A stretch of DNA of 64,000 nt from Escherichia coli (GTDB taxonomy: Bacteria; Pseudomonadota; Gammaproteobacteria; Enterobacterales; Enterobacteriaceae). Of the stretch, positions 27,063 to 59,200 are shown piece after piece; positions within the stretch are counted from its first letter, which is position 1; each line of letters opens with the position of its first letter. The translations under genes were made by a program, and so were the position numbers. Location of the stretch: the NCBI RefSeq assembly GCF_030013595.1, contig NZ_CP122771.1; one strand, written 5' to 3'. The notes under the pieces are model-generated. The model made no database searches. It had not been told where the DNA came from and was given only the letters and a program-made list of their open reading frames with translations.

Positions 27063-27275
27063 ATGAATGGATTCAGAAACAGTTCACGGAACGGTCAGGT
27101 CTGGTGCTGGCAGCGTGCCGGAAGCCGGGCCGTTATTCTGGAAGTCAGTGGTCGCTGGATGGAAGCGGCAGAAGCATGGCGACGGGCTGCCAGTGTTGCA
27201 CCCCGGACAGACTGGCAGCAGTTTGCCCGAAAAAGGGCTGAACACTGCCACCGGCGCTGCCGGGGAAGGGTGTAA
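27063..27275 (+). CDS. Small hypothetical Arg/Trp-rich protein (70 aa)
   Basis: Strong RBS aaagaggag upstream of ATG 27063; basic protein MNGFRNSSRNGQVWCWQRAGSR...; coding status uncertain. Confidence 0.3.
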   Translation: MNGFRNSSRNGQVWCWQRAGSRAVILEVSGRWMEAAEAWRRAASVAPRTDWQQFARKRAEHCHRRCRGRV

Positions 27276-27561
27276 CGAAAAAAGCAGCCTTCATTACTCC
27301 AGGTATTCAGAAGGCTGAATAATGCATGAGATTTTTCTTTTTTATATCTGGCCTGGCAGTATGACCAGTCAGCAGTCATTATCACAGGATTATTGCTGTA
27401 TTAAGTAATAGCGTGCTGTTTTGTGATTGATTTCATAAAACAAGACGTCGTTTAATATGCGCCTGAATATTCACGAGGGAAGTCTTTCTTTTTATATGGT
27501 GCTCCCGGAAATAAAATATTTTTTGTTATTGCTCACCCTGTTATGAATAAAAGGTAAAAAC

Positions 27562-41189: not shown

Positions 41190-41615
41190 ATGCAGTATGC
41201 AAAATCTGTCATTCTGAACGTTGAAGAGTGCGACCGTCTGTCTTTTCTGCCTTACCTGTTTGGCAACGATTTTCTGTATGCCGAGGCATCTGTGTACGCG
41301 CTGGCGAAAAAAATGATGCCGGAATATGAAGGCGGATTCTGGCACTTCATCCGCCTGCCGGACGGTGGCGGTTACATGATGCCGGATGGCGACCGTTTTC
41401 ATCTGGTCAACGGTGAAAACTGGTTTGACCGTACGGTCAGCGCCGATGCCGCAGGCATCATTCTGACCTCCCTTGTGATTAACCGCCAGTTGTGGCTGTA
41501 CCACGACAGCGGGGATGCGGGACTGACACACCTGTACCGGATGCGCGATGCGCAGTTGTGGAGCCACATCGAATTTCACCCCGAATGTAACGCGATTTAC
41601 GCGGCACTGGACTGA
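41190..41615 (+). CDS. ArdB/KlcA-family antirestriction protein
   Basis: 141 aa; motifs [20 protein letters not shown] and [10 protein letters not shown] resemble recalled KlcA/ArdB. Confidence 0.75.
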
Positions 41616-41661
41616 TTAACGGACGGGGCGGCAATGCCGTCCCTGTAAAGGCGACGAGAAC

Positions 41662-42084
41662 ATGTACTGTACTGTTAAAGAAATTATCCGCGAAGTGCTG
41701 GATACAGACGTGCCGGACAGTGAATGCGTTTTTGCCGTGGTGCTGACCCGTGGGGATGTGCGTCACATAGCCCAGGACTGGAACCTGTCAGACGATGAGC
41801 TGGAAACCGTCATGCAGCGGCTGGACGATGCCTTTGAGCATGGTGCGGATGTCAGCGTTGTTCACGACGTTGTTCGTGAACTGATGGAAGAAAAGCGCGC
41901 CAGCCGTCAGGTGACAGTCCCGGCGGTGATGCTGGAAAAAGTGATGGCGCTGGCAGGCAGTGAAATGAAGCGCCTGTATGCCGTCGGGAGTGAGAACGGG
42001 GGCGACGGTGACGCATTCGTCAGGGAAGAACGCGAAGCAATGGACGTTGTGTTACAGGCGCTGGACGGGGAGCACATGTCATGA
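41662..42084 (+). CDS. Hypothetical leading-region protein, paralog of 39513-39947
   Basis: 140 aa; shares N-terminal MYCT and RQVTVPA motif with the paralog. Confidence 0.55.
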   Translation: MYCTVKEIIREVLDTDVPDSECVFAVVLTRGDVRHIAQDWNLSDDELETVMQRLDDAFEHGADVSVVHDVVRELMEEKRASRQVTVPAVMLEKVMALAGSEMKRLYAVGSENGGDGDAFVREEREAMDVVLQALDGEHMS

Positions 42085-42272
42085 ATATCAGCACAGAAAC
42101 CCGCGAAATTCTGCGTAATTACAGGGCCGTGATTAATGCACGACGTCGTGAGATGGGGCAGAAACCGCTCACCACCGCGCAGGTTGTTGATGAAATCTGC
42201 GATTTTGTGGCGAATCAGCAGGCGGTTTTCCTCGGTGGTCACTACATCCTGCAGGGTAACAGAAACAGATGA
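42081..42272 (+). CDS. Hypothetical small protein (63 aa)
   Basis: ATGA overlap with the preceding gene. Confidence 0.4.
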   Translation: MNISTETREILRNYRAVINARRREMGQKPLTTAQVVDEICDFVANQQAVFLGGHYILQGNRNR

Positions 42273-42458
42273 TACAGAGGCAGGCGGTGGAGGCCGCCTG
42301 TCAGCCCGCGCGAAAACCCCTGGCAGGCTGGCGCCTGCCGGAAGGGAAGCGGGCCACGCTGGCGCGTCGCCCGTTACCCTTCCCGTTTGTGATGTGTCCG
42401 GAATGTTTTTTTCTGATGGTATGACCCTGTTCCTGTTGTTGTTGTTGTTCTTTTCTCT

Positions 42459-43072
42459 GCTGCCCTGATTCTGACTACTGCAGTGTTGTCCTGTCTGCCT
42501 GCGCACCTTCGGCTCCCGGCTGCCTGGCGGCATCCGGTCGTCAGGCCCGACTCCGACAGGCAGCTGCTGGCGCACCCGCCAGTCTCCGCCGAACCCGCTG
42601 GCGCGGTTTCGGGCTGTCGCTACGGTCCGATGCGTGAAAACCCCGGGCTTGCAGCGACCGTTCCGGTCGCGCCACCCTTGTCGCGCCGTGGCCTGCGCTC
42701 CCGGCATCCCGGCAAAAGGCCGCCGGGATGTAAGGCGCAACGCCGTTTCGCGCACGCGCTCTCCGTCGTTGCGGCGGGTCCCTGCTCATTGCCTGCCGGG
42801 TGCCACACACCCGTATGAGTCCCTGTCGCCGGGGGCTGATACAGCCACAACCTGCCGCACTGACTGTCCAGGGTAAATGAACAGCCCACAAAATTTTTTA
42901 CCCAAAACCCGGTAAAAAATTTTGCGTTCTGCCCGGGACAGGTGCGTCAGGCCGTGGCAGTGATGCCCCTTGCGGCGAAGGTTCTCAAACGGGTGAAGTT
43001 CATACCACAGGGAATACAGCAGCAGGTTCCCGCGAAACGTCAAAACCGCGGCTCCCGAAACTCAACGGGTGA
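42459..43072 (+). repeat. Leading-region repeat type B, copy 1 (Frpo-like; contains a 14-bp perfect hairpin at 42888-42926)
   Basis: About 600 bp shared with 45926-46373 and 56247-56835; conserved hairpin CAAAATTTTTTACC/GGTAAAAAATTTTG. Confidence 0.7.
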
Positions 43073-43303
43073 TGTTCTTTAAAAATCAGGATTTATTTCA
43101 GGCTCCGGCAATATGCATTTATTTGTTCTGTCAGTCATCCGGCTGGCAGGTAATGAGAACGCAGGAACAGAAGGAGGAAAACACCGGAGAACGTCAGACG
43201 CAGATATGAAAAAAGCAGGTCAGGGACCTGCTTAATCCACACCGCAGAGACTGCACGAACAGTCTTTACGGTTTCATTAATTAACGTCATAAGAGGCTAA
43301 ATT

Positions 43304-43534
43304 ATGACAGTAAGTATTGTTTCACCTTCCGCAGCGGCTGTAAAGCCCCGCCGTCATCCCCGTTTCAGACGCGAAGACATCCCCGCGCCGGAAATTGACC
43401 CCGTGCTGAAAGCCTTCGGGCGACACATTGCCCGGAGTTTTCACCGGGGGCGTGGTGTACACATCCCCGCCATGAAAAACACGACCTTCGGGCAGGTGCT
43501 CCGCACACTCGAACTGAAACGCGCTTTTAACTGA
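43304..43534 (+). CDS. Hypothetical small basic protein (76 aa)
   Basis: ATG with upstream gaggc; first ORF after repeat B copy 1. Confidence 0.4.
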   Translation: MTVSIVSPSAAAVKPRRHPRFRREDIPAPEIDPVLKAFGRHIARSFHRGRGVHIPAMKNTTFGQVLRTLELKRAFN

Positions 43535-43585
43535 TGAGGTGAGCCGCCCCGCGAGGGGCGGCAACAGACGGAAGGAGAACATTTT

Positions 43586-44947
43586 ATGACATTAGCAGCA
43601 ATCACCATGACCGCCCCGGAAGCCGCCAGCCCTGTGCAGATGTACCGCGCGACCTACTCACCGGATGACAACAAACTGCGCCTGTATGCCGTGTCACGTC
43701 TTGACCCGGAGACGTATAAAAAAGTGCATGATGCCGGTTTCCGCTGGGCACCAAAACAGGAGCTGTTTGTCGCGCTAGCCTGGACACCGGGCCGGGAAGA
43801 CGTGCTCCTCTCACTTGCCGGAGAGATTGAGGATGAAGACAGCACGCTCGCTGAACGTCAGGAAGCACGGGCGGAGCGGTTTACCGGATACAGCGGAAAG
43901 CGGGCCAGTGAATCCGCACAGGCACTTGATGAAGTGGAAAGACTGGCCGCGATGATCCCGCCCGGTCAGCCCATTCTTGTGGGGCATCACAGCGAACGCC
44001 GCACCCGTCGTGATGCGCAGCGTATTGAAAACGGCATGAAACGAGCAGTGATGCTCTTTGAACGTGCGGAATACTGGGAAGAGCGGGCGCGGTCGGCACG
44101 GCTTCACGCGAAGTATAAAGAACGTCCGGACGTTCGCTGGCGTCGCATCAAAAAAATCGAAGCTGATTTGCGCAAGGCTGAAAAGACCATCGCACAGTCG
44201 CAGAAATATCTGACGATGTGGCGGGCTGAATCGCTGGATCTGAATATGGCAAAATTCATCAGCAGTTATGACCGTATCAGTGCCTGTTTCCCGCTGGATA
44301 CGTATCCGCGCCCGGCAGAAAAAAGCCAGTATGAAGGGAGCCGGTCGTTATGGTCGGCCCTGGATGATGACATCATCACCACGGAGCAGGCCCGCGAAAT
44401 TGCGATCCGCTGTCATGAACGGCAGATTCAGCATCAACAACGCTGGGTTAACCACTATCAGAACCGCCTGATCTATGAGCGTACCATGCTGGACGAAAGC
44501 GGCGGCGTGGTTACCCGGACACAGGATTTTGAGCCGGGCGGACAGGTTTTCAGCCGGGGCGAGTGGCTGACCATCATCCGTGTGAACAAAAGCAACGGGG
44601 CGGTGAGTTCAGTCACAACGCCGAATTACAGTTTCCTCGGGTACAGCGGCACGATGAAAGTGACGCCCGATCGCATCACGGACTACAAAGCACCATCGGC
44701 AGAAGAGGCTGCCGTCGCCAGCCAGGCCGCGAAGCGTCCGCCGGTAGTCAACTATCCGGGGGAAGGTTTCCGGGAAATGACAAAGGCACAGTGGGCCGCC
44801 CTGCCCCGGGACTGTAAGGCCGTGCGCAGTGTGGCAGAAGCAGAAGACCACGGGGCATACCGCTACCGCCGCACAATGGACAATAATTTCCGTCTGGTGA
44901 ATGTGTATATCACCGACATGAAAATTACGGAAATCCCACAGAAATAA
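43586..44947 (+). CDS. Conserved leading-region protein (453 aa)
   Basis: RBS aaggaga before ATG 43586; long uninterrupted ORF. Confidence 0.6.
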   Translation: MTLAAITMTAPEAASPVQMYRATYSPDDNKLRLYAVSRLDPETYKKVHDAGFRWAPKQELFVALAWTPGREDVLLSLAGEIEDEDSTLAERQEARAERFTGYSGKRASESAQALDEVERLAAMIPPGQPILVGHHSERRTRRDAQRIENGMKRAVMLFERAEYWEERARSARLHAKYKERPDVRWRRIKKIEADLRKAEKTIAQSQKYLTMWRAESLDLNMAKFISSYDRISACFPLDTYPRPAEKSQYEGSRSLWSALDDDIITTEQAREIAIRCHERQIQHQQRWVNHYQNRLIYERTMLDESGGVVTRTQDFEPGGQVFSRGEWLTIIRVNKSNGAVSSVTTPNYSFLGYSGTMKVTPDRITDYKAPSAEEAAVASQAAKRPPVVNYPGEGFREMTKAQWAALPRDCKAVRSVAEAEDHGAYRYRRTMDNNFRLVNVYITDMKITEIPQK

Positions 44948-45775: not shown

Positions 45776-45925
45776 TTCTTCTTTTTTCTGATGCTCTCAT
45801 TACTGTCTGTTTTGTTGTTCTCCTGCTTATGCCTTTTCCGGGCGTCCCCCTGGCGGGGCGGGCTGTCGTGAACGGAGCCAGCGAAGCTGTCTCCGCCCTG
45901 GCGGGCTTCCATCCCTGACGCCAAA

Positions 45926-46373
45926 CCCCCTGGCTTGCAGCGACCGTTCCGGTCGCGCCGCCTCTGTCGCGCCGTGACCTGCGCTCCCGGCATCCCGGCA
46001 AAAGGCCGCCGGGATGTGAGGGGCAACGCCGTTTCGCGCACGCGCTCTTCGTCGTTGCGGCGGGTGCCTGCCCGTTGTTGTATCCGGTGCCCTGCACCCG
46101 TTTAAGCCCCTGTCGCCGGGGGCAAAGACAGCCACAACCGTCTCCGCCAGTCCAGGGGTGAAATGCACATCCCACAAAAGTTTTTGCCCAAAAGCCGGCA
46201 AAAACTTTTGTGGTCTGCCCCCGGACAGTCGTTTCCGGCCGTGGCAGTGATGCCCCTTGCGGCGAAGGTTCTCAAACGGGTGATGGTTAATACCGGAGGG
46301 AACAAACGGCAGGTCCCCGCAAAACGTCAAAACCGCGGCTCCCGAAACTCAACGGGTGATGGGGGCTGAAAAC
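45926..46373 (+). repeat. Leading-region repeat type B, copy 2 (5'-truncated; hairpin at 46174-46212)
   Basis: Aligns with copy 1 from ...ggcttgcagcgaccgttcc onward; hairpin arms carry compensatory changes. Confidence 0.7.
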
Positions 46374-46394
46374 ATCAACAGAAGGAGACACATC

Positions 46395-50474: not shown

Positions 50475-52046
50475 TTACTGAGAGGTCAGATCAACTTTCC
50501 AGGGCAACAGATCGCGTACCCGGTTTGCCGGCCAATCCTGGATATGCTCAATGACGTAACGCAGCCATTTTTCTGGTTCCACATTGTTCAGACGGCATGT
50601 GCCGATCAGCGAGTACAACACCGCCGCATGTTCGCCACCGCTGTCGGAACCCGCGAAGAGCCAGTTTTTCCGGCCTACGGCCACTCCCCGTAAGGCGTTC
50701 TCTGCGATGTTGTTGTCGATTTCCACCCAGCCATTACTGCAGTACACGTTCAGGGCCTCCCACTGTTTCAGCAGGTATGCGAACGCTTTTGCCGTATCCG
50801 AGTGACGCGACAGTGTTTTCATCTGTTCCTGTATCCAGTCATACAGTGACTGCATCAGTGGAGCCGCTCTGGCTTTTCTTGCTGCCAGACGCTGTTCTGC
50901 TGAACATCCCCGGACTTCTGCCTCGATGACATACAGTTCACCGATACGCTGCAGGGCTTCCGTGGTGATGTCGGTTGGCACTCTTGCATGCACATCGTGG
51001 ATTTTTCTCCGGGCATGGGCCATACACGCGGCTTCCGTTATTCTGCCGGATTCGTATAACGCCCGGTAACCACCGTAAGCATCTGCCTGAAGCACACCGC
51101 TGTAACCGGCCAGGTGATTCTGTGGATGGATACCTTTCCGGTCCGGGCTGTACGCGAACCAGACCGCCGGGGGCATCTGTGAACCGGCGTTACGGTCATC
51201 ACGGACATAGACCCACAGCCGGGCAGTTCTTGTTTTACCACTGCCCGGCTCCTGGACCGGAACGGGGATATCATCCGCATGGACTTTACCGGGCATCAGC
51301 ACATACTGGCGCAGCACGTCATACAGCGGCTCCAGCAGTTCAGCAACGGCACCGGTCCAGCGCCCCAGCGTGGCGCGGCTCAGTTCCACGCCCTGACGAA
51401 GGTATATTTCTGACTGGCGGTATAACGGCAGATGGTCTGCATACTTCCCGGTGACGATATGAGCCAGAAGCCCCGCTCCGGCATAACTGCGTGCAATGGG
51501 TTTTGAAGGTACTGGTGCCTGCACGATATGGTCGCACCGGCAACAGGCCAGTTTCGGACGTTGTGTTTCGATAACCTTAAAAGCGCTGCTGATAAGCTCC
51601 AGTTGCTCTGACACATCACACCCCAGAGGACTGAGGTCACCACCACAGGCCGGGCAGCATTCCTCTTCCGGCCGGATGACCCGGGTTTCACGGGGAAGTG
51701 AGGCCGGTAACGGCTTACGGGCTGAAGACTGGCGCAGGGCGGATGGCAGTACCGGGTCATATTGCTCATCCAGCGTTTCCGCCATTTCTTCCTGAAGTGC
51801 GCTGATTCGCTCCTGGGCTTCCTGTATCTGCCGTTCGGTTTTAGCGCGAAGTTTTTCTGAGCTTTTACCGAACTGCATGCGCTGCAGTTTCGCAACCAGC
51901 GCCTTCAGCCGGTTGATTTCGGAAGCATAAGCCGCCACCCGCTGTGAGAGCAGGCGGTTGTATTTCGCCATCTGGCGGATGGTGTCCTGTTGCGTCTGCA
52001 ACAGTGCCCGCAGGCGGGCATTCTCATGAGCAAGTGAGGTGTCCAT
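50475..52046 (-). CDS. IS66-family transposase (TnpC)
   Basis: 523 aa with N-terminal coiled coil, CxxC...CC zinc-finger region and DDE-type core typical of IS66 TnpC. Confidence 0.9.
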
Positions 52047-52065
52047 ATCCTCACTTTACAACGGG

Positions 52066-52413
52066 TTATATGCGGATGCCAGCGCGTTCCGTTCGTTTCG
52101 GGTGCTTCCAGTCGATGCCTTCGAGAAGCATGGACAACTGAGCCGGAGTAAGGTGAACCTTTCCATCGCGGGTGACCGGCCAGACGAAGCGGCCCCGCTC
52201 CAGGCGTTTGGTGAAGAGGCACAGTCCGTCACTGTCAGCCCACAGCACTTTTATCTGGTCACCCCGGCGTCCGCGGAAGATGAACAGATGCCCGGAGAAC
52301 GGGTCATCCTTCAGGACGTTCTGAACTTTTGAGGCCAGGCCGTTAAAGCCATTTCGCATATCGGTGATACCGGCAACCAGCCAGATACGCGAACCGGCAG
52401 GGAGAGATATCAT
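52066..52413 (-). CDS. IS66-family accessory protein TnpB (Orf2)
   Basis: 115 aa, MISLPAGSRIWLVAGITDMRNGFNGLA... typical IS66 Orf2. Confidence 0.85.
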   Translation of the reverse strand: MISLPAGSRIWLVAGITDMRNGFNGLASKVQNVLKDDPFSGHLFIFRGRRGDQIKVLWADSDGLCLFTKRLERGRFVWPVTRDGKVHLTPAQLSMLLEGIDWKHPKRTERAGIRI

Positions 52414-53063
52414 CAGTGGCTGCTCCCTTTCATTTCGCGGATAAGTGTCTGTAATAACGCCGGTGTCAGTTCACCTTTCAGCCTGAGAGTTCCGGCCGGC
52501 AGAACCAGCTCGCAGCACAGACTGTCTGGCAGTGTATTTATCTGTTCAGGTATCTGCACTGGTGCCGGGATTTTATTATCCGGCTCCGGAGTTAACGTCA
52601 CGGGAAGTAGCGATGTTTCATGTTCGCCGGGCGGTTGCAGGCCACCGTTACGCCAGAGATGCCGCCAGTTAAAGAGCAGGTTATCGTTAATTCCATTCTC
52701 TCGAGCTATTTGTGCGACACAAGCACCGGGTAAAAGAGTTTGCTGAACCAGTCTCCATTTAAACTCCGGTGAAAATCGGTTCCGGCGGGGTTTCTCTGCT
52801 TTCACAGGCTGAGTCACGGTCGGGGCTGAAGGGTATCGCCCCGGGAAAAGAGCCCGGGCCAGTTGCCCGCAGGAATATTCACCGGAAAGAGGCCAGTCAG
52901 TGAATACCTGGTGAAATCGCCTCACCAGAGAAAAAATGGCGGTTTTGCTGACACCGGTCTGCGCAGAAATGCGCGGGTACGACAGTGACTCGTCAAATCT
53001 CAGCTGTAGCACACGCAGGATCAATTCCGGATTGTCTGCCAGTACCGCTTTTCGTGCATTCAT
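52413..53063 (-). CDS. IS66-family accessory protein TnpA (Orf1, HTH)
   Basis: 216-aa ORF overlapping the tnpB start; first gene of the IS66 operon. Confidence 0.75.
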   Translation of the reverse strand: MNARKAVLADNPELILRVLQLRFDESLSYPRISAQTGVSKTAIFSLVRRFHQVFTDWPLSGEYSCGQLARALFPGRYPSAPTVTQPVKAEKPRRNRFSPEFKWRLVQQTLLPGACVAQIARENGINDNLLFNWRHLWRNGGLQPPGEHETSLLPVTLTPEPDNKIPAPVQIPEQINTLPDSLCCELVLPAGTLRLKGELTPALLQTLIREMKGSSH

Positions 53064-53374
53064 CTTAAATGTCCCTTTACTGCGAAAATGGACATTAGTA
53101 TCGGAAACAGGAAAGGGAGGCGAAAGACGGTTTAAATGAGACGGTTACCGTGATGCGGCAACAATCACATGGATTTCCCGTGAACGGTCTGAATGAGCGG
53201 ATTATTTTCAGGGAAAGTGAGTGTGGTCAGCGTGCAGGTATATGGGCTATGATGTGCCCGGCGCTTGAGGCTTTCTGCCTCATGACGTGAAGGTGGTTTG
53301 TTGCCGTGTTGTGTGGCAGAAAGAAGATAGCCCCGTAGTAAGTTAATTTTCATTAACCACCACGAGGCATCCCT

Positions 53375-53587
53375 ATGTCTAGTCCACATCAGGATAGCCT
53401 CTTACCGCGCTTTGCGCAAGGAGAAGAAGGCCATGAAACTACCACGAAGTTCCCTTGTCTGGTGTGTGTTGATCGTGTGTCTCACACTGTTGATATTCAC
53501 TTATCTGACACGAAAATCGCTGTGCGAGATTCGTTACAGAGACGGACACAGGGAGGTGGCGGCTTTCATGGCTTACGAATCCGGTAA
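53375..53587 (+). CDS. mok: Mok (FlmC) leader ORF overlapping hok
   Basis: 70-codon ORF overlapping hok in a different frame, as in hok/sok loci. Confidence 0.5.
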
Positions 53588-53591: not shown

Positions 53592-53902
53592 CAACCTGGA
53601 GGCGGGCGCAGGCCCGCCTTTTCAGGACTGATGCTGGTCTGACTACTGAAGCGCCTTTATAAAGGGGCTGCTGGTTCGCCGGTAGCCCCTTTCTCCTTGC
53701 TGATGTTGTACGGGCATGAACAACCTGACTTCAGGAAGGTCGTTTCCCTTCAGGAACGGGGATGAACGCGCGCCTGCGGCGCCCGTTCTTTTCCCCCGCC
53801 TTCTCTGGTTATGGCCTGTCAGAAATCACATCACCTTCCCTGTGATTATTCTCTTTTTCTTCCTGCTCTGATTCTGACTACTGCAGTGTTGTCCTGTCTG
53901 CC

Positions 53903-56246
53903 GGGTCGGGTAGCAGCGGCACATTGCTGCGCCGCCGCCCCCTAAGAACGGAGCGTGCGAGTTTTCCCGCACTCCGCTCAAGCCTTTATAAGTGCTTTCG
54001 GTGAGCACCGGCTTCCCTGCTGTGTAACTGTCGGTGGCAGTTCGGATGTAACAACTCGAGATTGGTCAGTTCGTCACTGCCGCCCATAACTTTCCTGATC
54101 CGGTGATGTATATTCCATCCGGTCTGGTTGGTTATGAGTTGTCCGCACTGCGGACAGTGTTTCCCCTGCCTCTTCCAGAGTTGAACTACTGTCTTCATCT
54201 TCTTTGATTTGCCTTTCCAGATTAGATCCAGACGACGTTCAAAGTAGATTTCCATTCCGGGGGTGTATGGTGTTGCTTCGCCTTTGATTTTTATATGGCG
54301 CTTTATCGGTGTTTCCATTGCCCGGAAGAGTGTCAGAATTTTCCCTTCCGGGGTTATGGCTTTAAAGATCCAGCGCCTGCCTTCAAAGGAGAAGTATCGT
54401 CCGGCGATCCACCGCAATCCTTTCCGGGGATGCCGTCTTACACACCATCGCCATATAGCTCGCCAGATTTGGGTGTCGACATAATTAAATGTTTCTTTCG
54501 CCACGACGTGTCGGTGATAGGTAGCCCATCCCCGGATCACCGGGTTTAGCTGGCCTATCAGTTTCCATGCCGGGAGCGTCGGATTGCGTTTAATTATTTC
54601 TCTGACTTTACAGAGGAAGTTCTTCAGGTTTTTCTTCGACGGTTTAATCAGCATTTTACCGTTGTACTTCCTGACGTTCTGCCCTAAAAAGTCGAAGCCT
54701 TTATCTATATGTGTGATCGCTGTTTTTTCTTCCGACAGTTCCAGCCCTCGTTCGCGCATGAAAGCTGCAATCAGTGGTCTGACCTCATTTTCCAGCAATT
54801 CACGGGAGCTGCCTGAACAGATGAAATCATCAGCATATCTCACATAATTCACCTGGTGCTTTGCACTGTGATAACCACTTTTCCTGAACGTTTGCATCAG
54901 TTCCTTCTCCAGTCCGTCCAGAGCCATGTTGGCGAGAACAGGGGATATGATGCCTCCCTGCGGTGTCCCGCTGTTCGTATGGTTAAACACGCCTCTTTCC
55001 ATGTAACCTGCTTTCAACCATTTTTTAAGCAGTCTCCTGTCCATCGGAATATGGGAAAGCAGCCAGTCATGGCTGATGTTATCGAAACACCCTTTAATAT
55101 CGCCCTCCAGTATCCATTTGGGCGATACTTTCTGGCTCATCCGCAGAAAAATGGACTCAATGGCGTCATGCGTGCTGCGCATTGGTCTGAAACCATAGCT
55201 GTTATGGTCAGCAGTGGTCTCGGATACGGGTTCCAGAGCCAGCAGCCACAGTGCCTGCATGGCCCGGTCCCTCATTGTGGGTATGCCCAGCGGTCGCGTT
55301 TTGCCGTTTGATTTTGGGATATGTATTCGCCGTAGTGGCTGTGGCCTGTAACCACACAGATTCAGGCTGCATATTCCTTCCCATTTCTCCTTCGGTGTGT
55401 GCCATATTTTTCCGTCAATACCGGGTGTCCTTTTACCGGTATTTTCAGTTACACGCCTGACAGCCACGGCTTTGCCGGAGAATGAGCGGGTGAGGATGCG
55501 CTGTAGTTCTCTGACCTGCCGCCATTGTTGCTGTCGGGTTGCCTTTGCAATCCGTAACTGTAGCTTTCGCACCCGGGCATGGCATGCTTTCCAGTTTATG
55601 GTGTGCCAGCCTGTCGGGTGGGGTATCGTGGACACACTGATGTGTGTATTCATCTCGCTGATATCCTTTTGACTGCTTTACAGCTTTTCATGCAATTAAA
55701 GACCAGACGGAAGTCTGCCCGCTTTCGCGTCGGGGAACCTGCCCCGTATCCCGGTTATTACGGCCGGGCATTCGCTTTTTCCGTCCTCCTATGCCCGCAC
55801 CGCTAACAGTGTTCCTTGCGGTTCACCTGCCTGTGAGGCAGCGATACGGGTTTACCAGGTTCCGCTTAACATACAGAGGGTCAGGGCGGGTTCTGTCTCT
55901 TCACCGGGGGTCTCTGCGCCCATGTGCTCCCTGTGCGCGAGGTAGCAACCGGACCCCGTACCTTTTGGTTCAGGCCTGTCAGCATCTTTGGCCTGTTGCC
56001 GATAACGGTGTTTATCAACAGTTCACATGTGTTAACCCTTCTGACCAGCCTTGCTCTCCTGCCGCATGATGCTTGCAGCAAGGTAAAGCCCCTCACGGGG
56101 CTTTACCCGGGCTGACGCCCGGCTCTCGTTGTCCCGGGAGCTTCAGACCCCGCCGTTGCCGGCAACGCCTGTCCCGGTAGGCTACAGCTAATGGGATAGC
56201 TGGTTTTATCAATGTAAAACAATACGTTAAGCGACTTCCTGTCGCA
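53903..56246 (-). mobile_element. Group II intron (about 2.34 kb) inserted in a type B leading-region repeat; low-coordinate boundary uncertain by about 10 bp
   Basis: Minus-strand 5' end GTGCGAC at 56246; domain V GAGCGGAGTGCGGGAAAACTCGCACGCTCCGTTC at 53946-53979; flanks rejoin to match uninterrupted copy 1 at 42459-42510. Confidence 0.8.
53986..55653 (-). CDS. Group II intron-encoded protein (reverse transcriptase / maturase / HNH endonuclease)
   Basis: 555 aa with RT motifs (YADD), maturase X region and C-terminal HNH-like Cys/His cluster. Confidence 0.9.
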   Translation of the reverse strand: MNTHISVSTIPHPTGWHTINWKACHARVRKLQLRIAKATRQQQWRQVRELQRILTRSFSGKAVAVRRVTENTGKRTPGIDGKIWHTPKEKWEGICSLNLCGYRPQPLRRIHIPKSNGKTRPLGIPTMRDRAMQALWLLALEPVSETTADHNSYGFRPMRSTHDAIESIFLRMSQKVSPKWILEGDIKGCFDNISHDWLLSHIPMDRRLLKKWLKAGYMERGVFNHTNSGTPQGGIISPVLANMALDGLEKELMQTFRKSGYHSAKHQVNYVRYADDFICSGSSRELLENEVRPLIAAFMRERGLELSEEKTAITHIDKGFDFLGQNVRKYNGKMLIKPSKKNLKNFLCKVREIIKRNPTLPAWKLIGQLNPVIRGWATYHRHVVAKETFNYVDTQIWRAIWRWCVRRHPRKGLRWIAGRYFSFEGRRWIFKAITPEGKILTLFRAMETPIKRHIKIKGEATPYTPGMEIYFERRLDLIWKGKSKKMKTVVQLWKRQGKHCPQCGQLITNQTGWNIHHRIRKVMGGSDELTNLELLHPNCHRQLHSREAGAHRKHL

Positions 56247-56835
56247 CGCGCACCTTCGGCTCCCGGCTGCCTGGCGGCATCCGGTCGTCAGGCCCGACTC
56301 CGACAGGCAGCTGCTGGCGCACCTGCCAGTCTCCGCCGAACCCGCTGGCGCGGTTTCGGGCTGTCGCTACGGTCCGATGCGTGAAAACCCCGGGCTTGCA
56401 GCGACCGTTCCGGTCGCGCCGCCTCTGTCGCGCCGTGGCCTGCGCTCCCGGCATCCCGGCAAAAGGCCGCCGGGATGTAAGGCGCAACGCCGTTTCGCAA
56501 ACCGCGCTTCACGTCGTTGCGGCGGGTCCCTGCCCGTTGTTGTGTCCGGTGCCATTCACCTGTTTAAGCCCCTGTCGCCGGGGGCATAGACAGCCACAAC
56601 CGTCTCCGCCAGTCCAGGGGTGAAATGCACATCCCGCAAAACTTTTTGCCCAGAAGCAGGCAAAAACTTTTGCGGTCTGCCCCCGGACAGTCGTTTCCGG
56701 CCGTGGCAGTGATGCCCCATGCGGCGAAGGTTCTCAAACAGGTGATGGTGAATACCGGAGGGAACAAAAGGCAGGTCCCCGCAAAACGTCAAAACCGCGG
56801 CTCCCGAAACTCAACAGATGATGGGGGCTGAAAAC
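56247..56835 (+). repeat. Leading-region repeat type B, copy 3 (its 5' portion at 53862-53902 is separated by the intron; hairpin at 56635-56674)
   Basis: Aligns with copy 1 from gcgcaccttcggctcccggctgcctggcgg onward. Confidence 0.7.
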
Positions 56836-56855
56836 CAGAGAGAGGAGAAAGCAGG

Positions 56856-57143
56856 ATGAGTACCCGAAATATCCACGTTAACACCGCGTCGTACACGCTT
56901 CTTGTTGCCGGGAAGAAAAAAAACACCGGGGAAGAGTGGGACGTCCTGGAATTCAGCAGCCTGACTGAGCTGAAAAAATATCGCAAAAGCCACCCGGAAA
57001 AGATGGCCTTCAGTTATAGCTACGCGCTCAGTCAGGGTGTGGATAAGCAGTTCCGCCATATCAACATTGCGGAAGCCGATCACTTCAAACAGTTCCTGCG
57101 TCAGATTAAGCGTGCCGGCCTCGATATCCGGGCGATCTGCTGA
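56856..57143 (+). CDS. Hypothetical leading-region protein (95 aa)
   Basis: RBS gagaggaga before ATG 56856; first ORF after repeat B copy 3. Confidence 0.5.
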   Translation: MSTRNIHVNTASYTLLVAGKKKNTGEEWDVLEFSSLTELKKYRKSHPEKMAFSYSYALSQGVDKQFRHINIAEADHFKQFLRQIKRAGLDIRAIC

Positions 57144-57260
57144 CCGGATGTGATGAATACCCCTCCTGATTGTTGCAATCTTGTTAATGGAGATCGGGGG
57201 GATGATATTAAGCGGAAAAATTTTTTATTAAATTTATTCTTTCATAAAGGAGTAGCTGTT

Positions 57261-58082
57261 ATGCGATTAGCTTCCCGTTTTGGTCGGTATAATTCCATCC
57301 GCCGTGAACGTCCTTTAACGGATGATGAATTAATGCAGTTCGTGCCTTCGGTATTTTCCGGTGATAAACATGAGTCCCGGAGTGAACGTTATACGTATAT
57401 TCCAACAATCAATATCATCAATAAGTTACGTGATGAAGGTTTCCAGCCATTCTTTGCCTGTCAGAGTCGGGTTCGTGATTTGGGACGTCGCGAATACAGT
57501 AAACATATGTTACGTCTTCGCAGGGAAGGGCATATTAACGGACAGGAAGTTCCTGAAATTATCCTGCTTAATTCACATGATGGTTCATCCAGTTATCAGA
57601 TGATCCCCGGAATTTTTCGTTTTGTCTGCACAAATGGCCTGGTGTGCGGAAATAATTTTGGCGAAATCCGCGTTCCACATAAAGGTGATATTGTCGGGCA
57701 GGTTATCGAGGGAGCGTATGAAGTGCTCGGTGTCTTTGATAAGGTCACTGATAATATGGAGGCGATGAAAGAAATTCATCTTAACAGTGACGAGCAACAT
57801 TTATTTGGCAGAGCTGCACTGATGGTCAGGTATGAAGATGAAAATAAAACGCCAGTGACACCTGAACAGATAATTACTCCCCGTCGTCGGGAAGACAAAC
57901 AGAACGATCTCTGGACAACCTGGCAGCGGGTTCAGGAGAATATGATAAAAGGTGGATTATCGGGGCGAAGTGCCTCCGGGAAAAATACCAGGACAAGAGC
58001 CATTACAGGTATTGATGGTGATATAAGAATCAACAAGGCGTTATGGGTGATTGCCGAACAGTTCAGAAAGTGGAAGTCATGA
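57261..58082 (+). CDS. Conserved leading-region protein (273 aa)
   Basis: RBS aagga then ATG 57261; uninterrupted ORF. Confidence 0.55.
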   Translation: MRLASRFGRYNSIRRERPLTDDELMQFVPSVFSGDKHESRSERYTYIPTINIINKLRDEGFQPFFACQSRVRDLGRREYSKHMLRLRREGHINGQEVPEIILLNSHDGSSSYQMIPGIFRFVCTNGLVCGNNFGEIRVPHKGDIVGQVIEGAYEVLGVFDKVTDNMEAMKEIHLNSDEQHLFGRAALMVRYEDENKTPVTPEQIITPRRREDKQNDLWTTWQRVQENMIKGGLSGRSASGKNTRTRAITGIDGDIRINKALWVIAEQFRKWKS

Positions 58083-58934: not shown

Positions 58935-59200
58935 ACAAAAAGGCTCAACAGGTTGGTGGTTCTCACCACCAAAAGCACCACACACTACGCAAAAACAAGT
59001 TTTTGCTGATTTGCCTTTTAAATCATGTAATTAACAAATGCTATTTATATTTAATAATTCTGAATTATTAAATAGAGAGTCGTTGGCGATCCTGTTACGA
59101 CCCTATAGCGACCCTTATTAGGATCAGTACTGACAATTTTCATGAAAAACATTGATATATATTAGGGGCGCCACTAGCGCCGGATCGCATTTTTTTATAG
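58935..59200 (+). other. oriT region with R100-type nic sequence (nic near 58979/58980 on the minus strand)
   Basis: Minus-strand TTTGCGTAGTGTGT^GGTGCTTTTGGTGGTGAGAACCACC matches recalled F-family oriT with R100-type nic core; followed by AT-rich region and inverted repeats before traM. Confidence 0.7.

Follow-up and report, generated by a model that had tools for sequence, protein, structure and literature searches.

The window, 64,000 nucleotides (nt) of Escherichia coli DNA from assembly GCF_030013595.1 (contig NZ_CP122771.1), belongs to an IncF plasmid and carries on its minus strand a complete group II intron of 2343 nt (53905..56247), inserted in one of the repeats of the plasmid leading region. 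We consider it very probable that this intron belongs to the chloroplast-like (CL)/IIB1 kind as a relative of EcI5, that it is intact and mobile at present, and that it arrived by ordinary endonuclease-dependent retrohoming into a conserved, non-coding and repeated site. An earlier note on this DNA, made from the letters and their translations, had described a group II intron at this place, and that observation was confirmed far above chance. Unless stated otherwise, the intron, exon and repeat features described below lie on the minus strand.

Anatomy and class of the intron

The element runs from 5' GUGCGAC to CUACCCGAC at its 3' end. The start motif GTGCGAC, already proposed in the note, was read on the minus strand at 56247. 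When 250 nt of each flank were rejoined, the resulting sequence matched the intron-less plasmids CP122741.1 and NZ_CP122686.1 at 500 of 500 positions, which fixes the limits of the intron at 56247..53905 and bears out the claim of an insertion in a leading-region repeat with precisely rejoining flanks. Both ends fit the group II rule (GUGYG at the 5' end, AY at the 3' end), with GUGCG at 56247-56243 and ...GAC at 53905. The end of the Rfam model of the two terminal domains coincides with the same 3' base, and the length of 2343 nt recurs in intron copies at other sites. The range given previously, 53862-56260, does contain the intron, but it also takes in 13 nt of the 5' exon and 43 nt of the 3' exon.

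The Rfam search for intron domains that the note had proposed returned matches to both group-II-D1D4-7 and Intron_gpII. The former (RF02012) identified the 5' portion of domain I at 56054..56203 with 121.7 bits (E 4e-25, gathering score 34); the match spans the full model (1-151) and covers intron nt 45-194 only. Intron_gpII (RF00029), which describes domains V and VI, aligned over its full length to 53981..53905 with 55.2 bits (gathering score 40). This alignment confirmed domain V at 53946..53979, as previously read, with a length of 34 nt and an AGC triad. It placed domain VI at 53905..53943, where CUACCC corresponds to CUACCC of the model, with a bulged branch-point A at 53911, six nt before the last intron base, and the 3' end ...GAC. 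A sub-threshold Rfam scan of the region gave nothing besides these two models.

The intron encodes a protein of 555 amino acids (aa) at 53986..55653, comprising reverse transcriptase (RT), maturase (X) and HNH endonuclease domains. It scored 385 bits against TIGR04416 (cut-off 300) and contains the Pfam domains RVT_N, RVT_1, GIIM and HNH, in agreement with the RT/maturase/HNH protein reported before; the YADD and HNH motifs are readable in the translation. The protein matched chain C of PDB entry 6me0 ('Maturase reverse transcriptase' in the search output) with an E-value of 1e-177, and it shares 56% identity over 548 aa with the RT of EcI5 from pO157. The ribozyme is approximately 67-79% identical to that of EcI5 at the nucleotide level in the alignable parts, and ~67% over intron nt 63-1043. 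EcI5 is an IIB1/CL1 intron (PMC8643678). Judged by its sequence, this bacterial group II intron is intact and of the CL/IIB1 kind, the CL1 placement coming from pairwise identity to EcI5.

The reading that the RT belongs to a retron or another non-intron retroelement, which the note had named as a reason to abandon the intron, is refuted and retains practically no probability: retron and DRT models gave weak sub-threshold matches, as any RT does, far below their cut-offs (at most 56 bits against cut-offs of at least 200), whereas the TIGR04416 score exceeds the cut-off, the protein has a GIIM maturase domain, ribozyme domains lie on both sides of the open reading frame (ORF), and the insertion boundaries are exact.

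Two existing names were considered for the intron and rejected. It is not E.c.I11, since the sole intron of pEC958 encodes a different protein of 633 aa and lies inside ssb, and it is not EcI5, to which it is only 56% identical and whose locus is different. No name for the window intron was found in the Zimmerly nomenclature.

Target site and the neighbouring Frpo promoter

The 5' exon target (56248..56261) consists of A at -14, intron-binding site 2 (IBS2) GCCGA at 56256-56260 and IBS1 GUGCGC at 56248-56253. Within the intron, GCGCAC at nt 310-315 (55933..55938) is the putative exon-binding site 1 (EBS1), a perfect complement of the exon GUGCGC at -6..-1. The putative EBS2 is UCGGC at nt 246-250 (55998..56002), complementary to the exon GCCGA at -13..-9 and assigned by complementarity only. 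Pairing at the IncF site is complete, with 6/6 positions for EBS1 and 5/5 for EBS2. The 3' exon (53852..53904), delimited by repeat family D4 and the empty-site match, comprises the final ~50 nt of the repeat unit, with C at +1 (53904).

The leading region holds three repeats of ~600 nt, R1 to R3, which align with the Frpo1 and Frpo2 regions of F. The intron splits R3, in which repeat families D1-D4 cover 53852-53902 and 56248-56838, with a counterpart at 42449-43089 (a unit of ~640 nt). That counterpart is R1 (42449..43089), an uninterrupted copy of what we call type B, with an empty target (junction between 42501 and 42500) and the 3' exon allele AGG. R2 (45787..46376), upstream of ssb, combines an Frpo2 homologue with an F-like 'type A' distal module and has no target. 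At the Frpo1 position in R3, a homologue of the F ssiD/Frpo sequence is intact at 56478..56827. It is 96.0% identical over 351 nt to published ssiD, whose sequence was taken from the supplement of Samuel et al. 2024; the same sequence matches R2 at 92% and R1 at 80%. Between this Frpo homologue and the intron lies the G+C-rich distal 'type B' module of R3 (56248..56477), 98% identical to R1 42501-42751, and on the other side of the intron the 3' exon at 53852-53902 is 90% identical to R1 42449-42499. The type B module is common to R1 and R3 and missing from R2 and from Frpo1 and Frpo2 of the F plasmid; it is also present in the IncI1 plasmids R64 and pCFS3313-2, and so is kept between IncF and IncI1 leading regions. 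Modules seem to be shuffled among the repeat loci: the R2 position, of type A in the window, is filled and hence of type B in NZ_CP020496.1, and NZ_OM179752.1 contains R1/R2 hybrid repeats.

As single-stranded DNA (ssDNA), the Frpo homologue is predicted to form a single long hairpin (~56810..56496; -109 kcal/mol, z -10.9). Along the transferred strand (T-strand), the insertion junction between 56248 and 56247 lies 230 nt past the Frpo homologue, ~250 nt past the hairpin and ~178 nt beyond the end of the ColIb-type ssi boundary, and it falls 50 nt short of the end of the repeat unit. The insertion is inside the Frpo-bearing repeat unit and outside both the Frpo/ssi homologue and the long hairpin. 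The earlier description of an intron homed into an Frpo-like single-strand promoter is right as to the repeat, which does bear the Frpo1 (ssiD) homologue, but not as to the promoter itself. In the sense of transcription the intron is upstream of Frpo1, and it is antisense to the leading genes. Because the insertion falls in the distal module, upstream of the promoter, Frpo1 and the genes that follow it, ygeA (56856-57143) and DUF932 (57150-58082), are intact.

The rejoined flanks had also been equated with the uninterrupted copy of the window at 42459-42510. The repeat is indeed of the same type B, but the junction reads AGG in R1 and CCGG in the rejoined flanks; the exact CCGG version is found uninterrupted in other plasmids. 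The AGG allele has A instead of C at +1 and one base fewer, and CCGG is the form in filled and most empty copies. We considered whether the empty R1 copy of the window, with its AGG allele and A at +1, could be absolutely immune to the intron, and rejected this, as NZ_OM179752.1 carries the intron in an AGG allele.

The possibility that the intron splits a real gene was likewise rejected: the 76-aa ORF annotated by PGAP over the empty target, on the opposite strand, is of low complexity, rich in Ala, Arg and Leu, and probably spurious. This hypothetical protein (WP_001426396.1, 'yffB' in IncI nomenclature) spans the empty target of NZ_CP122686.1 at 2614-2844. Its equivalent in the window lies on the plus strand at ~53.87-53.90 and 56.25-56.44 kb, split by the intron.

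The polarity of transfer was read from the origin of transfer. A pattern search located an oriT nic-site motif at 58972..58993 on the minus strand, TTTGCGTAGTGTGT followed by GGTGCTTT, and we take the nick to fall between these two parts, at ~58980, by analogy with the nic sites of F and R100. Since the motif is on the minus strand, coordinates fall along the T-strand from 5' to 3', and the leading region extends over ~42-59 kb. The intron-sense strand is the T-strand, which upholds the proposal that the intron resides in DNA entering recipients as ssDNA.

Distribution and route of arrival

Plasmids were counted in PLSDB (72,556 plasmids). At least 80% of the element is present in 982 records, and the repeat-to-intron 5' junction in 1010; the 3' flank is of the R1-locus type in 780 records and of the R3 type, as in the window, in 66. 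The uninterrupted target occurs in at least 2634 plasmids. Intron copies are 99-100% identical to one another. Occupancy varies among loci and plasmids: NZ_CP122851.1 has an identical intron at the R1 locus, all three repeats are filled in NZ_CP020496.1, pEC958 offers three perfect targets that are all empty, and F has no target. Near-identical plasmids of one study differ only by the presence or absence of the intron at its exact boundaries. From this distribution, the junction in the repeat module is the natural homing site of the intron.

Of 5426 complete E. coli genomes, 343 contain the intron, which occupies 562 places on plasmids and 49 on chromosomes. Three of the chromosomal copies, located in rfbK, gntU and a gene for a zinc metallopeptidase, have only A-14, GCCG, G-6 T-5 and C+1 in common with the plasmid site, and no other homology. 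A short motif shared by such chromosomal look-alike sites is, in sequence terms, characteristic of ectopic retrotransposition. GCCG at -13..-10 is kept at all plasmid and chromosomal insertion sites compared, and at the three chromosomal sites 4-6 of the 6 EBS1 pairs are kept, G-U pairs counted.

The IncI1 plasmid pCFS3313-2 carries the intron at 41479-43821 with 99.87% identity, antisense to ssb and ~178 nt past the ssi3 homologue, and R64 provides the exact empty counterpart of this site (minus strand, ~30784). In the IncI1 5' exon, IBS2 lies at the same distance from the junction, and positions -7..-1 read GTGGGCG. The pCFS3313-2 copy has three substitutions, none of them in EBS1 or EBS2. 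The site appears to be used efficiently despite its poor fit to EBS1. Benz & Hall (2023) reported that a putative group II intron had formed new junctions with the leading region of the IncI plasmid p15ESBL in two replicate lines, at the position that the intron occupies in p1ESBL, and for the LtrA homologue of p1ESBL they referred to pCFS3313-2 (PMC10104558); we link their intron to that of the window through this cited reference rather than by direct sequence comparison.

Several observations weigh against the reading of an intact intron homing by ordinary target recognition. The covariance models match part of domain I and domains V and VI only. EBS3 was not located in the intron. The 3' exon base at +1 can be A rather than C, as in the AGG allele of NZ_OM179752.1. 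The IncI1 site pairs with EBS1 at 1/6 positions in register and at 6/7 if shifted by one nt, so a simple EBS1/IBS1 rule fails to cover all natural sites. Finally, a consensus scan for a promoter of the intron-bearing minus-strand transcript gave no excess over shuffled sequences.

The anatomy of the intron, its exact limits, its complementarity to the target and its distribution were observed directly, and from these we infer the steps of the mobility pathway. The excised intron RNA, together with its RT/maturase/HNH protein, would recognise a short sequence (A-14, IBS2 GCCGA, IBS1 GUGCGC and usually C+1) that lies where a conserved module ends, the module found alongside the Frpo/ssi single-strand promoters in IncF and IncI leading regions. 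The RNA would reverse-splice into the target-bearing strand, which is the transferred one, the HNH domain would nick the opposite strand, and the RT would copy the intron. As the module occurs in up to three copies per plasmid, it would offer up to three safe non-coding landing sites, from which the intron may spread between hosts by riding conjugation. As the intron is antisense to the leading genes and lies on the upstream side of the Frpo1 hairpin, no host gene depends on its splicing, and the promoter is not interrupted.

Homing could instead be coupled to conjugation itself. The ribonucleoprotein would then reverse-splice into the single-stranded T-strand, either in the recipient, once the strand has entered, or in the donor, once TraI has unwound it; reverse transcription would be primed by the nascent complementary strand, and the endonuclease would be dispensable. 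The sense of the intron is that of the T-strand, which places the IBS on the strand that becomes single-stranded, and the T-strand is the template of discontinuous complementary synthesis. In work on RmInt1 and Ll.LtrB, endonuclease-independent group II intron mobility prefers this template orientation. However, the orientation is set by the repeat and thus amounts to one observation, not many, and both EcI5 (pO157) and the ssb intron of pEC958, also on F-like plasmids, are oppositely oriented. Structure gives a similarly divided picture. The type B module is strongly folded as ssDNA (z -5.1 for a 333-nt stretch that includes ~20 nt of Frpo and ~80 nt of the 3' exon), and the CCGG allele is predicted to form a small hairpin (-12.3 kcal/mol, z -2.3) whose loop contains IBS2 and IBS1; but this target hairpin is weak, and it is gone in the AGG allele, yet that allele is occupied in NZ_OM179752.1. 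The host studied by Benz & Hall had the intron on resident plasmids when the new junctions arose (PMC10104558), a point in favour of such coupling, whereas the 49 chromosomal copies and an HNH domain that is intact and kept in all copies, as in ordinary double-strand homing, argue the other way. Taken together, we regard homing of this kind as unlikely. It seems similarly improbable that the intron is specialised for the ssDNA-structured Frpo/ssi module and homes into the T-strand during conjugation, its poor EBS1 fit at the efficiently used IncI1 site then meaning that it recognises DNA structure or the distal 5' exon instead of pairing canonically.

A different possibility is that the window copy came by homologous recombination or gene conversion between repeats or co-resident plasmids and not by fresh retrohoming. 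The repeat copies share ~590 nt of 5' flank at 94-98% identity, and the module shuffling at the R2 position of NZ_CP020496.1 and in the hybrids of NZ_OM179752.1 is evident; the homology on the 3' side, however, is short (~50 nt at 90%). Sites that lack flanking homology, on the chromosome and in the IncI1 3' exon, show that the element moves by itself, and closely related plasmids differ only by the intron at exact boundaries. We therefore think it doubtful that recombination delivered this copy.

The insertion might also have been selected for altering leading-region expression, by insulating Frpo1 from transcription further upstream or by changing the folding of the T-strand near the promoter. 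The intron puts 2.3 kb between hok/sok (53259-53435) and Frpo1, in a leading region that is known as a hotspot of adaptive change (PMC10104558), but the Frpo hairpin and the downstream genes are untouched, and near-identical plasmids differ in occupancy, which is only partial, as for a selfish element. The 76-aa ORF over the target also speaks against this reading, being low in complexity and probably spurious. This explanation is very unlikely.

Plasmid context, related introns and significance

The IncF character of the window is reflected in Rfam matches at 59.8 kb to the traJ 5' untranslated region and FinP and at 30.8 kb to CopA, and in further matches to two hok/sok loci and to several tra antisense RNAs. 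In plus-sense order, the leading region begins with antirestriction and DUF1380 genes, followed by R1, the 76-aa ORF, the DUF3560 and methyltransferase genes and R2; next come ssb, a ParB-like gene, psiB, psiA, an IS66 element, hok/sok and R3 split by the intron, and then the ygeA-like gene, DUF932 and oriT. The IS66-family element (tnpA, tnpB and transposase ORFs; minus strand, 50475-53063) sits between psiA and hok/sok, ~0.8 kb from the 3' end of the intron, an arrangement also found in pE92-2. Antisense RNAs described from plasmid pHK01 were matched as well: AS-pc01 at 43210-43309 and AS-pc02 at 27172-27355, both on the minus strand. AS-pc01 lies just downstream of R1 and overlaps the start of the 76-aa ORF at 43304.

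An unrelated group II intron, whose encoded protein has 633 aa (WP_000936285.1), occurs in pEC958 (NZ_HG941719.1, ~15.9-18.7 kb), where it has been called E.c.I11 (PMC4398462), and in NZ_CP020496.1 (~7.5-10.1 kb). It is absent from the window; in these plasmids it lies in sense orientation within the leading-region ssb gene, at its 5' end and a short distance downstream of the Frpo2 position. Since ssb is transcribed from ssDNA on entry, production of SSB in these plasmids would depend on splicing of that intron.

The closest well-described relative of the window intron is EcI5. Both have the RT-X-HNH architecture, both are on an F-like plasmid, and the order of A at -14, IBS2 and IBS1 is as described for EcI5 (PMC8643678). 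In contrast, the bases critical for EcI5, C-17, A-15 and T+5, are replaced by G, G and C at the site studied here, and the proteins differ in length (574 aa in EcI5, 555 aa in the window intron). EcI5 is single-copy and outside any repeat; on pO157 it is flanked by sopB and a DUF1281-type gene and oriented like the leading genes.

The lactococcal group II intron Ll.LtrB offers another parallel: it lies in the relaxase gene, a transfer-related part, of conjugative elements and spreads by conjugation. It is a IIA intron, placed in sense inside an essential gene, and its splicing is required for transfer, whereas the window intron is IIB1-like, lies in non-coding DNA at a repeated site and is antisense to its neighbours. 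RmInt1 and the class C/attC introns likewise insert in the template strand of discontinuous synthesis, at targets surrounded by structured DNA, but they have no endonuclease domain, unlike the window intron with its HNH domain and its sequence-defined target of the IIB type.

The window element is the same as the unnamed 'group II intron' or ltrA of IncF and IncI plasmids (WP_052991863.1, WP_012372796.1, WP_001762494.1), whose ltrA-annotated copies are 99-100% identical in ~1000 PLSDB records, and the intron has been noted in IncF33 plasmids as a marker (PMC10654068). The searchable literature on group II introns together with Frpo/ssi, the leading region or the T-strand yielded incidental mentions only. 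Nowhere in it was the homing site identified as the Frpo/ssi-flanking module, and neither the filling of several copies on one plasmid nor the T-strand sense of the intron was stated. The element is already known from ltrA annotation and plasmid papers and belongs to a well-studied class; the target preference is a modest descriptive addition and not a new kind of system.

About a quarter of the target-bearing plasmids carry a 2.3-kb retroelement at this site, in one to three copies and at variable loci. The intron copies provide extra homology for leading-region rearrangements, and their presence or absence is a lineage marker. In annotation and in analyses of Frpo/ssi-driven early genes, the promoter next to the intron should be treated as intact and not as disrupted. 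With a repeated target, a fixed orientation relative to oriT and plasmids that can be delivered as ssDNA or as double-stranded DNA, these plasmids form a natural test system, suited to the question of whether a group II intron can exploit conjugative ssDNA. If homing were indeed coupled to conjugation, the spread of the intron would be mechanistically tied to plasmid entry.

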